Source of the DNA: a virus
Lineage: Monodnaviria; Loebvirae; Hofneiviricota; Faserviricetes; Tubulavirales; Inoviridae
DNA: 5,541 nt
IMG/VR virus record: IMGVR_UViG_2585427969_000012
Direction: 5' to 3' (one strand)
The notes under the pieces: generated by a model
Database searches by the model: none
Seen by the model: the letters and a program-made list of their open reading frames with translations, nothing else
Told to the model about the DNA's origin: nothing
Part shown: piece after piece, positions 3,143 to 5,277 of the stretch
How the letters are laid out: every line of letters begins with the position of its first letter
How positions within the stretch are numbered: the first letter of the stretch is position 1
Program-made: the position numbers and the translations under genes

Positions 3143-4383
3143 ATGAAAAAGATTTTACTCGCATTAACGCTACTATTTTCTTCATGTGCTTTCGCAGGGT
3201 CAGAGCTTGAATTAAATAAAGTCAAGCTACCGGAGGCTATTTCTCTTATTTACAGTGAGGTGCTTAAAGTCCCGTATATGCTAGATCCACAGCTTGTTAA
3301 TGATGAACGAATGATTACATTCAGGTTAACACCTGATATTGATGAACGGGAATTTGTAACCCGTTATCTTGGCAATATGAACATTCGAATATGGACGAAA
3401 AAGGGTGTTGATTTTATCGCGCCCTATACGCCGAAAGAGCCGGTTAAGCCACGTTATACATGGACTTATACGCCTCAGTACCGTTCTGTTGCCTACCTGT
3501 CTGATATTCTTGGCGGCTACGTTTCAGGCTCCTTCAATAACAGTGGAGCCGTGATTTCTGACGATTCGCTAAAAGGTTCATCAGGGGCAAGCAACTACAT
3601 CAATCGAACCGGTGATATTCTGGTTTATTATGGTACGAAAGAGGATATCGCCATCCTGAAAACACTGGTCACTTCGCTGGATACGATGAGTGATGAAGTG
3701 GTTGTTTCTGGTTATGTTTTTGAGGTTCAGACCTCGCAGTCTGACGGCTCCGGCATTCTTTTAGCGGCTAAAATTCTGTCTGATAAATTCAATATTTCAG
3801 TTGGTGCTGCCGGACTGGATAATTTTATCAATATTCGAACCGGCTCCATTGATGCCATTTTCAATCTGCTGAAAACCGACAGTCGTTTTACTGTTGTCAG
3901 TGCGCCGACTGCGGGTAAAAAATAATGCCTCAGCGTCTTTTTCAGTCGGCTCTGATGTGCCAGTACTGGGCAGTGTTACGGTGAATAACAATACGACAAC
4001 GCAATCCGTTGAATATCGTTCCAGCGGTTTTTGTTAACGTGACGCCATCAATCAAAAGTCGGACAATGGATCTCAAGATTCAGCAGCAGCTTTCCAACTT
4101 TGTGACCACTGAAACCGGCGTCAATAACTCGCCAACCCTTATCAAGCGTGATGTAACAACCGAAGTCAGCCTTGCAGATGGTGATATTATTTTACTTGGT
4201 GGCCTTGCTGAACAGAAAGACAGTAAGGCCAGTTCCGGCTGGAGCTTCTTCGGTTCCCGTACCAGTGAAAGCAACAAGACTGATATTATGGTGATGCTTC
4301 AGGTCAGAAAGGTTGACCGGAGCAGGGCGACGCCCCGCAGCGCCGCGAGGAGCGGTGAACTGTTCCGGGACAACCTGAACTGA
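3143..4383 (+). pseudogene. pIV-type secretin (phage export channel), disrupted by two +1 frame changes; segments 3143-3925 (frame 2), 3924-4034 (frame 3), 3985-4383 (frame 1)
   Basis: Sec-type signal peptide MKKILLALTLLFSSCAFA|GSE. Joining the three frames gives a continuous secretin-like sequence: ...VVSAPTAGK/NASASFSVGSDVPVLGSVTVNNNTTTQSVEYRSSGF/VNVTPSIKS...DGDIILLGGLAEQKDSKASSGWSFFGSRTSESNKTDIMVMLQVRKV. This follows the order of the Ff pIV C-terminal domain (…SISVGQNVPFITG…DGQTLLLGGLTDY…SGVPFLSKIP…SRSDSNEESTLYVLV). The frame breaks coincide with an A6 run (3917-3922) and a T5 run (4028-4032). Confidence 0.85.
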
Positions 4384-4471
4384 TTGTATGGATTTTTATT
4401 ATGGCGTTAACTTTTATGGGGTATGAACAGTACGACATCTTCTAGGTATTCAGTTACTTAGAGGATTTATT
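4384..4471 (+). promoter_or_regulatory. AT-rich intergenic region, candidate promoter for the downstream small ORF
   Basis: 88-bp AT-rich gap between the secretin stop and a strongly SD-preceded ORF. It contains TTGTAT and TATTAT-like hexamers, but no unambiguous -35/-10 pair at canonical spacing could be assigned by eye. Confidence 0.2.
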
Positions 4472-4720
4472 ATGTCTGTAAAAAATAAGGCGCGTGACCG
4501 ACTTCCCGGTGGCCGCCTTAAGTCTTATCGTCGTGTAGGTTCACATTTTGCCAGTTGTGCCAGATGGTTTGATAAATCGCCGTCCTGGTATCGCAATATG
4601 ATGATGACCAGGCCTGAGCGTCGTGAAGTCAGAAGGCTTCTCAATCAGGTAATGCGTGGTCATGATGCTGACGGCATTGCTTTTCCGGTCAGTCATCGTC
4701 CGTTTGTTTATTGGTGGTGA
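4472..4720 (+). CDS. Hypothetical small basic protein (82 aa) in the dif-proximal module; function unknown, possibly DNA-binding, regulatory or recombination accessory
   Basis: Good SD (GAGGA, 6-nt spacer) before ATG 4472. The product is Arg/Lys-rich (MSVKNKARDRLPGGRLKSYRRVGSHF...RPERREVRRLLNQVMRGHDADG...). GC content is about 50 percent, against about 35-40 percent for the structural genes upstream. Confidence 0.5.
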   Translation: MSVKNKARDRLPGGRLKSYRRVGSHFASCARWFDKSPSWYRNMMMTRPERREVRRLLNQVMRGHDADGIAFPVSHRPFVYWW

Positions 4721-4743
4721 ATTTCGTACGCACGAAATTTCAC
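4717..4743 (+). other. Stem-loop directly after the stop of ORF 4472-4720
   Basis: AATTTCGT (4720-4727) pairs perfectly with ACGAAATT (4732-4739) around a 4-nt loop ACGC, and extends to GTG/CAC with one bulge. No U-tract follows, so it is not a canonical intrinsic terminator. Confidence 0.35.
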
Positions 4744-4803
4744 GCATAAACACCAGACAAAAAATCGTTAACTGTCTGTTTTGAAAGATAACGCCGGTCA
4801 GTG

Positions 4804-4819
4804 ACAAAACTTGTTTTGT
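4804..4819. repeat. Inverted repeat ACAAAAC-TT-GTTTTGT (operator-like)
   Basis: 7-bp perfect inverted arms with a 2-bp spacer. A second inverted repeat CAGACA(4754-4759)...TGTCTG(4773-4778) lies just upstream. Both are in the non-coding stretch 4721-4903. Confidence 0.3.
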
Positions 4820-4903
4820 TGCTGTCCGGGGTTGGCCAAGCCGTACAGTTTCCATTTTCAGCGTTATGGCTGATTCGGCGCGGCAGCATTCATCGGGCTT
4901 ATC

Positions 4904-5095
4904 ATGGAAAAATTCATGACACATCAGGAGCTGAAAGTGATGCTTCTTAAAGATCCAGCATTCCGGGCTGCTTATGAAGCTGAGAGCCAGAACCCGCAAT
5001 CCGGTTACCAGATTATCCGGCATCATGGTGATGGCACTGAAGAAGTGGTTTTGATTCTCGTGTATCAGGTACAGATTTACCAACTAACTGGATGA
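4904..5095 (+). CDS. Small hypothetical ORF (63 aa), doubtful
   Basis: No convincing SD at ATG 4904 or the internal ATG 4916. The N-terminus (MTHQELKVMLLKDPAFRAAYEAE) looks protein-like but the C-terminal half has odd composition. It may be a remnant. Confidence 0.2.
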   Translation: MEKFMTHQELKVMLLKDPAFRAAYEAESQNPQSGYQIIRHHGDGTEEVVLILVYQVQIYQLTG

Positions 5096-5144
5096 ACAGG
5101 CCTGATTGGTGAGGTCAGGCGTTCACTTACTGCTGACAGACATT

Positions 5145-5184
5145 TGATTCTGATTCGTTTGGAGAAACGGATGATTTTGAATCA
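5145..5184. repeat. Tandem TGATTC-TGATTC direct repeat with nested inverted repeats, within a GATTC-rich tract upstream of the dif-like site
   Basis: TGATTC at 5145-5150 and 5151-5156; inner stem CGTTT(5156-5160)/AAACG(5165-5169) with loop GGAG; outer arm GAATCA (5179-5184) is complementary to TGATTC. Further GATTC copies at 5222-5226 and 5231-5235. Confidence 0.4.
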
Positions 5185-5200
5185 CTGTCGATAGTAGCCA

Positions 5201-5219
5201 GTTGACGGCCAGTGTCAAC
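5201..5219. repeat. Inverted repeat GTTGAC-N7-GTCAAC
   Basis: Perfect 6-bp arms at 5201-5206 and 5214-5219 with a 7-nt spacer, flanked by CCAGT direct repeats (5198-5202 and 5209-5213). Confidence 0.4.
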
Positions 5220-5249
5220 GATTCCCGCCAGATTCTGCCATCCTTACCA

Positions 5250-5277
5250 TTGGCGCATAATGTATATTATGTTAAAT
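5250..5277 (+). other. dif-like XerC/XerD recombination site, likely the prophage-chromosome junction (attR-type hybrid)
   Basis: TTGGCGCATAA-TGTATA-TTATGTTAAAT compared with the E. coli dif consensus GGTGCGCATAA-TGTATA-TTATGTTAAAT: the central region and XerD arm match 17/17, the XerC arm 8/11. The divergent XerC arm faces the phage genes and the perfect XerD arm faces the flank. Confidence 0.8.

Follow-up and report, generated by a model that had tools for sequence, protein, structure and literature searches.

Why does the 3' end of a filamentous phage secretin gene hold the most GC-rich patch of its surroundings, and why does the encoded protein carry a tail that most of its relatives lack? 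These questions are raised by a stretch of 5,541 nt (IMG/VR record IMGVR_UViG_2585427969_000012, Inoviridae), hereafter called the window, in which an Escherichia coli filamentous prophage of the CUS-1/YpfPhi type is represented by its right half, with the dif site at its end. An earlier note, made from the letters of the window alone, had proposed that a recombination breakpoint near position 4310 joins a morphogenesis module to an integration/regulatory module of different origin. Our analysis makes another answer probable, namely that the patch is a conserved hairpin of the viral (+) strand at the end of the morphogenesis genes, translated as the secretin tail and serving as a packaging signal, and that there is no breakpoint at this place.

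A GC-rich hairpin at the secretin stop codon

The values for GC (guanine plus cytosine) content given in the earlier note were exact, with 0.30 at 2281-2340 and 0.70 at 4321-4380, and its figure of about 50% for the open reading frame (ORF) at 4472-4720 agrees with the 0.49 that was measured here. The sharp compositional break that it described is, however, not a step. Among the 60-nt intervals of the whole window the highest GC content, 0.733, is that of 4310-4369, a value reached in 0.4% of shuffles, and the GC-rich island around this interval is ~75 nt long, with the GC content falling to 0.318 directly after it, at 4384-4471. The distal part of the window, 4384-5250, has a GC content of 0.454 versus 0.422 for 1-4309, which lies within the upstream range (2% of equal-sized upstream intervals are as high, and the upstream maximum is 0.463), and patches of 0.50-0.55 are also found at 251-450 and 2801-3050. 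Over the whole CUS-type prophage, the top 60-nt interval is again the hairpin described below, at 0.733 versus 0.633 for the next one. The compositional spike is the signature of a structured element and not of a recombination junction. A reverse-strand ORF at 4304-4438 (44 amino acids, aa) was also considered as the cause of the GC patch and was rejected, as Pfam gave no more than noise below threshold for it and the sequence of its 3' part is not conserved in Phytobacter or Erwinia.

The island coincides with an imperfect hairpin (Table 1), in which the main stem pairs 4317-4325 with 4360-4368 and outer stems pair 4311-4315 with 4372-4376 and 4299-4306 with 4376-4383. As single-stranded DNA (ssDNA), 4299-4383 folds at -23.5 kcal/mol (z = -3.7 to -3.9), and none of 500 shuffled sequences was as stable. 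The region around the normal secretin end was then taken from 80 related loci. In the relatives whose secretin has no tail, a long hairpin lies at the same place, in most of them directly after the secretin stop or overlapping it; such loci occur in Lelliottia, Providencia, Arsenophonus, Kluyvera, Gilliamella, Xenorhabdus, Photorhabdus, Haemophilus and an enterobacterial metagenome-assembled genome (MAG), and Duganella is also among the relatives that present the same apical motif on a different stem. Across this family the stem sequences are unrelated yet co-vary, and the apex, CCGCAGC-N3-4-GCGAGGA, is near-invariant, its columns being invariant in two of the hairpin alignments (A4 and A6). 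Within 608 kb of related loci the apical motif has 30 matches, all of them on the + (coding) strand. When strand was scored over 39 matches, 37 were coding, and the remaining two are weak palindromic echoes of the stem.

A covariance model built from 26 hairpins (model R1) recovers 32 loci, five of them outside its training set, and matches the window at 4299-4385 with E = 3e-9. In an alignment fitted to this model, which makes the counts lean slightly towards it, compensatory double changes are seen in 13 of the 16 stem pairs; 85% of the cells are paired, a figure that drops to 61% in shuffles and to 45% or less with slid partners, the cells with double changes number 124 where 38 are expected, and the covariation score is 0.644 versus 0.20. 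A raw, unfitted MAFFT alignment gives a like picture, with 13 of 15 pairs. Base pairing is therefore maintained by compensatory change across independent lineages, and the hairpin is a structured, conserved element of the DNA, of a general kind already known from inoviruses as the gene-IV-proximal hairpin. This particular family appears to be a new one: literature searches on the apical motif and on inovirus hairpins found no description of it, neither a hairpin nor a secretin tail is described in the searched or read text of the CUS-1/YpfPhi and UPPhi papers (PMC4266046, PMC7307601), and an Rfam scan of 4200-5541 gave no real match, only a spurious long noncoding RNA (E = 4) elsewhere in the region.

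The reach of the family was extended with an exact search of the 14-base apex in IMG/VR, which returned at least 120 stretches, 80 of which were scanned with model R1. The full hairpin is present in 6 of these 80 and the others look like chance matches in large contigs, so that the bare motif is not diagnostic without its stem. In four of the six hairpin loci a Zot homologue is encoded on the strand that carries the hairpin, and three of the four lack a secretin. In the Lelliottia locus, a second copy of the apical motif (CCGCAGCGAAGCGAGGA, at 4322-4338 of L009) lies ~120 nt downstream of the first hairpin on a weaker stem. In three Haemophilus loci (L029, L045 and L050) the same slot, directly behind the secretin stop, is taken by another type of conserved hairpin (…AAAGGGTAAAGGCGTTACACGCCTGCGCTTTG…), which suggests that several hairpin families exist for the same post-secretin position.

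The hairpin also accounts for the unusual end of the secretin. The intact protein has 414 aa (reference copy at 9153-10397 of L001), of which the PHROG 1012 profile covers the part up to residue 394. An end at ...KV(P/D)R is seen both in homologues at 65% identity and in the majority of the others, and among 120 homologues and 80 loci most stop within 0-3 residues of that end. The extension beyond the usual end that the earlier note had pointed out is thus real, although it has 20 residues and not the 21 given there, the first Arg of that count being the normal last residue of the family; its codons occupy 4321-4380 and the TGA stop 4381-4383. It is limited to the CUS-1/YpfPhi clade and its relatives in Brenneria, Phytobacter, Erwinia and Pectobacterium. 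The CUS-1 clade lacks the stop that usually follows ...KVDR. Its secretin frame continues along the 5' and the 3' arm of the hairpin as far as a TGA in the 3' base, and the Arg/Ala/Pro/Gly-rich tail is therefore a translation of the hairpin.

It may be asked whether the tail is instead a selected functional extension of the secretin, for example a docking peptide, with the GC content following from its Arg, Ala, Pro and Gly codons. The tail is kept in four genera with secretins 77-82% identical to that of the window, and the residues PRSAARSG are invariant in it. However, when the tail-bearing clade was compared (E. coli/Yersinia pestis, Brenneria, Phytobacter, Erwinia tracheiphila and Pectobacterium), these were the only invariant residues of the tail, and they are exactly the ones that the DNA apex encodes. 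The apex is conserved also where it is non-coding or read in another frame; in Lelliottia the secretin stop falls in the 5' arm of the hairpin, and the apical motif follows after the stop in a different frame. Outside PRSAARSG the tail is ~65% identical, compared with 78% for the secretin body, and thus diverges faster, whereas 13-15 substitutions per 87 nt have left the hairpin at -22.7 to -24.6 kcal/mol. These substitutions are compensatory at the DNA level (for instance, CAG>CAA is matched by CTG>TTG). No support was found for a functional domain of the S-domain kind either, as the Pfam and PHROG models end before the tail and most of the secretin family does without it. A function of the tail as a peptide is hence highly improbable, and from these comparisons the tail is best read as a by-product of read-through and not as a new protein domain.

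Related cases fit the same description. In some Xenorhabdus-type loci the conceptual translation beyond the stop gives ...RPRSGARRQVF, which resembles the CUS-1 tail. A Salmonella secretin (P0064, 56% identity) also reads into a 70%-GC hairpin, here with a variant apex, to give the tail TSAAHAPSSHEERAR, apparently independently of the CUS-1 clade. Odd Arg/Ala-rich tails of secretins would in this way be explained as read-through of a DNA element, with no need to postulate new protein domains. Arg/Ala-rich C-terminal tails were noticed in P0083 (E. coli, 399 aa) and in P0062, P0064 and P0065 (Klebsiella and Salmonella, 420 aa).

Table 1. Features at the end of the secretin gene and in the distal part of the window.
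Feature	Position	Strand	Remarks
Secretin (pIV homologue, YPO2280 equivalent)	3143-4383	+	Pfam Secretin; PHROG 1012 'protein IV of M13'
Imperfect hairpin, 85 nt, coinciding with the GC island	4299-4383	+	Candidate packaging (morphogenetic) signal
20-codon extension (SRATPRSAARSGELFRDNLN) and TGA stop	4321-4383	+	Beyond the normal family end ...KVDR
Apical motif CCGCAGC-GCC-GCGAGGA	4335-4351	+	Near-invariant in the family; encodes the invariant PRSAARSG of the tail
AT-rich spacer, GC ~0.32	4384-4417		Left edge of the region common to IKe/UPPhi-like prophages
Small AT-rich hairpin and T-rich run	4437-4466	+	Only terminator-like site in the scan
YPO2280a homologue, basic 82-aa protein	4472-4720	+	34 Enterobacterales homologues, many exactly 82 aa
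Conserved non-coding block with two hairpins	4790-4885	+	Inverted repeat 4790-4810/4813-4833, then GGCCAAGCCG...CGGCGCGGC
YPO2281 homologue, 65 aa when intact	4916-5112	+	In the window, loss of 1 nt at 5049 shifts the frame
dif-adjacent conserved non-coding block	5094-5249		Several short inverted repeats; 97.5% identical to ERP001
dif (attR)	5250-5277		Exact 28-bp site in the intact copy; 2 nt of the XerC arm missing from the window

Packaging, priming or the end of a transcript

Packaging signals of filamentous phages are almost unknown outside the Ff phages (f1, M13 and fd) and IKe, and in integrative filamentous phages the first ones were reported in 2023, from Xanthomonas (bioRxiv 10.1101/2023.12.30.573655). 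The hairpin of the window has the form and the place of such a signal, being a long, stable and imperfect hairpin of the + strand that constitutes a GC island at the 3' end of the gene IV homologue and ends at the secretin stop. In the Ff phages, hairpin A is likewise a long imperfect + strand hairpin of ~55-80 nt that directly follows gene IV; the packaging signal of f1 is at 5511-5564 (bioRxiv 10.1101/2023.12.30.573655), the gene IV coding sequence (CDS) ends at 5500, and a 60-nt interval that ties for the highest GC content of the genome, 5513-5572 (0.717, in a genome of ~41% GC), is this signal. The IKe record (NC_002014) has a 'morphogenetic signal' stem-loop at 6141-6196, overlapping the last 11 nt of gene IV, and the top 60-nt GC interval of the whole IKe genome is 6153-6212. 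There are also differences. The Ff signal lacks the apical motif and any sequence similarity to the hairpin of the window, it is wholly non-coding whereas the hairpin is translated in the secretin frame, and its function is proven experimentally, that of the hairpin being inferred. The IKe signal belongs to another sequence family and overlaps gene IV by 11 nt only, compared with a hairpin in the window that contains the last 85 nt of the secretin gene including the stop, 63 of them being tail and stop.

Two further comparisons bear on a packaging function. ERP001, an IKe/UPPhi-like prophage, has a hairpin at its secretin stop, in the same slot just upstream of a distal module that it shares with the window, and its secretin 3' end together with the 5' arm and loop of this hairpin is 73% identical to the IKe gene IV end and signal over 70 nt (E = 4e-4). 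The packaging signals of the Xanthomonas phiLf-type phages, which also are dif-integrating inoviruses, are GC-rich hairpins with conserved stem and loop nucleotides and can lie inside coding regions (bioRxiv 10.1101/2023.12.30.573655); they are a precedent for a packaging signal within a gene. They differ from the element described here in that their orientation is not critical, whereas this one, of ~85 nt, is strictly confined to the + strand and has another motif.

By analogy with these phages, we give the hairpin about an even chance of being the packaging (morphogenetic) signal. As in f1 and IKe, it would then stay exposed on the pV-coated ssDNA and be read by the assembly proteins; signals of the Ff/IKe kind act in cis, encapsidation depends on their orientation, and their partners are pVII, pIX and pI. 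It may in addition slow or end transcription of the assembly operon, and a minor role of this sort is compatible with packaging. Consistent with recognition by assembly proteins, the type of hairpin tracks the structural module and not the distal module that CUS-type and UPPhi-like phages have in common, nor does it follow the gII and gV genes, which are reported as shared (PMC7307601). Several observations weigh against a packaging function. Neither model R1 nor BLAST found sequence homology to the f1 or IKe signal. The apex is invariant from Enterobacterales to Pasteurellaceae and a betaproteobacterium, which would fit a conserved host enzyme, such as one acting in complementary-strand priming. 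The hairpin follows the secretin at a distance of 500-750 nt in some loci of Pasteurellaceae, and in some secretin-less inoviruses it is not beside Zot. The link between hairpin type and structural module could be mere physical adjacency to gene IV, and G-T pairs in the stems leave room for a role at the RNA level.

The main alternative would make the hairpin the origin of the complementary (minus) strand, or a single-strand initiation (ssi) signal, kept free of SSB or pV on the incoming ssDNA, at which RNA polymerase, DnaG or PriA would prime synthesis of the double-stranded form. A near-invariant apex in phages of very different hosts is what recognition by a host factor would lead one to expect, the hairpin is strictly on the + strand, and the stretch that follows gene IV is also where Ff and IKe have their minus origin. 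In addition, several apices of the family contain GCGAAGC, a very stable DNA mini-hairpin reported in origins of ssDNA phages; stable hairpins specific to the + strand are also a property of the complementary-strand origins of such phages (Ff hairpins B and C, G4, phiX174). Known origins of this kind are, however, multi-hairpin or promoter-like, in contrast to a single hairpin with a fixed apex, and the hairpin of the window stands in the position of a packaging signal: both Ff and IKe have their packaging signal in the hairpin that comes first after gene IV, with the minus origin 150-250 nt beyond it. The element has no promoter-like pair of hexamers and no conserved CTG. When 4250-5300 was compared by BLAST with the intergenic regions of IKe and f1, no homology to their minus or plus origins appeared, an outcome that favours neither packaging nor priming. 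Moreover, the hairpin type co-varies with the structural module although CUS- and UPPhi-type phages share a host and are reported to share replication genes (PMC7307601), and the two-hairpin block at 4790-4885, which both phage types have, is a better fit to a host-dependent origin. We therefore regard a priming function as unlikely.

A role confined to RNA, with the hairpin acting as a terminator, 3'-end stabiliser or processing site for the messenger of the assembly operon, is less probable still. It would suit a hairpin that closes the last assembly gene, the fold of the RNA at -69 kcal/mol over 191 nt (z = -3.8) and the A and T runs that flank the stem in some relatives, and the IKe record labels the counterpart 'pot. 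transcription termination'. But the terminator scan does not flag the hairpin, the nearest T run being ~11 nt beyond its base, and many members of the family have no T run at all. An invariant apex with fixed bulged A residues is not a trait of intrinsic terminators, and YPO2280a, which is next on the same strand, would need either transcription through the hairpin or a promoter of its own. A pure Rho-independent terminator was considered separately and found unlikely, as the stem is not immediately followed by a T run.

Packaging and priming may also be treated together, as two ways in which a cis-acting ssDNA signal with a CCGCAGC-N3-GCGAGGA apex could be read sequence-specifically. In this broader proposal, to which we give slightly less than an even chance, the signal, undescribed in the literature searched, would belong to a wide lineage of inoviruses from Enterobacterales, Pasteurellaceae and some Betaproteobacteria, secretin-less inoviruses included, and would be embedded in the secretin CDS in the plague- and ExPEC-associated (extraintestinal pathogenic E. 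coli) phages YpfPhi and CUS-1. The hairpin family, which can be searched with a model, provides a concrete packaging candidate for YpfPhi/CUS-1 and for many related prophages. A conserved hairpin of this kind would permit the design of phagemids and satellites for these phages and would aid the annotation of inovirus prophages.

Module boundaries downstream of the hairpin

Where, then, does exchange between phage lineages take place? In the Phytobacter and Erwinia relatives, homology to the window ends either at the 3' side of the hairpin base or directly behind the stop codon (~4377-4386), and the hairpin is thus the last element of the morphogenesis block, with exchange occurring downstream of it, including inside YPO2280a. 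A comparison with two E. coli prophages locates the sites. One is ERP001; its structural module is unrelated to that of the window, yet 4418-4609 and 5094-5249 are in common. The other, Z1323 (L003, E. coli Z1323CEC0009, 6163-7100 versus 4472-5277 of the window), is a natural recombinant, with a CUS-type backbone to ~4609 followed by an ERP001/UPPhi-like cassette. Identity between the window and Z1323 is 99.1% over 4150-4383, 99.5% over 4418-4609, 81% over 4610-4699, ~43% over 4700-5093 and 86.7% over 5094-5249; for the window and ERP001 the first four of these intervals give 38%, 88%, 80% and ~43%, and for Z1323 and ERP001 the last four give 88%, 97.8%, 94.6% and 88.6%, the first not being informative. 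The crossover in Z1323 is at ~4610, inside YPO2280a, and in both prophages YPO2281 (cassette ~4700-5093) is replaced by an unrelated reverse-strand ORF of 81 aa (PHROG 21003). The real module boundaries are at ~4400-4418, ~4610 and ~5093, which corrects the map of DNA exchange sites between CUS-type and UPPhi-type phages.

Modular exchange of the dif-proximal region, which the earlier note had expected, is borne out by ERP001 and Z1323, and this exchangeability, along with the slightly higher distal GC content (0.454 versus 0.422), is what could be said for a junction at 4310 between the morphogenesis module and a foreign, higher-GC one. Yet no relative's similarity starts or stops there; it stops at ~4377-4418, ~4610 and ~5093, and Z1323 is identical to the window across 4250-4400. 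The GC island is one member of a family of hairpins whose place is at the 3' end of the secretin gene, and the GC content just after it is 0.32. The breakpoint was thus misplaced and its cause misread, and a junction at 4310 has very little probability left. A different origin of the distal module is likewise not demonstrable. The order secretin, hairpin, YPO2280a, followed by YPO2281 in some loci, recurs in distant relatives, namely Brenneria, Xenorhabdus, a Salmonella prophage and the enterobacterial MAG, which makes the distal genes long-standing companions and not a foreign graft. Both halves of the window share the same phylogenetic neighbours and the tail is conserved in Brenneria, Phytobacter, Erwinia and Pectobacterium, and this is essentially what the earlier note itself had named as evidence against two origins. 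In the UPPhi paper, homology to YpfPhi is reported for genes II and V only (PMC7307601), in contrast to the distal blocks that a UPPhi-like prophage shares here at 88-97.5%.

The distal genes gave no indication of an integration or regulatory role, and that label found no support in Pfam, PHROG or homologue searches. Pfam has no family for YPO2280a or YPO2281, PHROGs place them in families of unknown function only, and the homologues of YPO2280a are all hypothetical proteins. Two structured elements accompany these genes. The block at 4790-4885 is found in ~70 other E. coli genomes at 86-89% identity and is kept where the flanking accessory ORFs differ, lying in canonical UPPhi prophages between different accessory ORFs; ERP001 shows compensatory changes in it. 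The block is a candidate for a second cis-acting element and might be, for example, a minus-strand origin. The small hairpin at 4437-4466, which is conserved in ERP001, overlaps the Shine-Dalgarno sequence and the start of YPO2280a (ATG at 4472), and it could gate the translation of this gene or act as a terminator.

The prophage copy in the window

Prophages of the CUS-1/YpfPhi type in ~100 complete E. coli genomes are 99.1-99.6% identical to the window, and the Y. pestis secretin shows 100% identity to the one encoded here. The intact copy has the full gene set of a dif-integrated inovirus of this type, in the order pIII-like protein, DUF2523 (pVI-like), Zot (pI), 414-aa secretin, 82-aa ORF, 65-aa ORF and dif. 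The last two ORFs are named YPO2280a and YPO2281 in the YpfPhi review, which assigns them no function (PMC4266046). The dif-like site of the earlier note is indeed dif. Matches to other prophage copies stop at 5277, the end of the prophage, and 5278-5541 is chromosomal flank that is present in 493 genomes. As in other CUS-1/YpfPhi prophages, which are integrated at dif, often as tandem arrays, YPO2280a and YPO2281 adjoin attR. Megablast of the whole window against the phage collection returned no match; such elements are represented only as prophages.

Relative to the intact copy of strain GON1437, the window lacks 21 bases, all in deletions of 1-2 nt, and has no insertions and only five substitutions. 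The deletion sites include 120, 165, 190, 665, 784, 813, 1086, 1114, 1282, 3081, 3905, 4026, 4894, 5049, 5119, 5252 and 5460, and the sequences that they break up are the pIII-like ORF, Zot, the secretin, YPO2281 and dif. Two of the deletions, of 2 nt each and located after 3905 and 4026, leave the secretin in two pieces, 3143-3925 and 4009-4383. This pattern suggests an error of sequencing or assembly rather than decay or pseudogenisation.

Two variants of the prophage were seen in passing. At the tandem prophage junction of Z1323 (~7100-7130 of L003), the sequence GGTGCGCATAATGTACGACTCGTTATGT has a dif-like XerC arm together with a divergent central region and XerD arm, and is presumably derived from the phage attP. 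In E. coli strain 8178 (5596-8283 of L005) a deletion derivative of the prophage retains a truncated rep gene and a truncated pIII-like ORF joined directly to the sequence that begins at position 4438 of the window; Zot, the secretin and the hairpin are absent from it.

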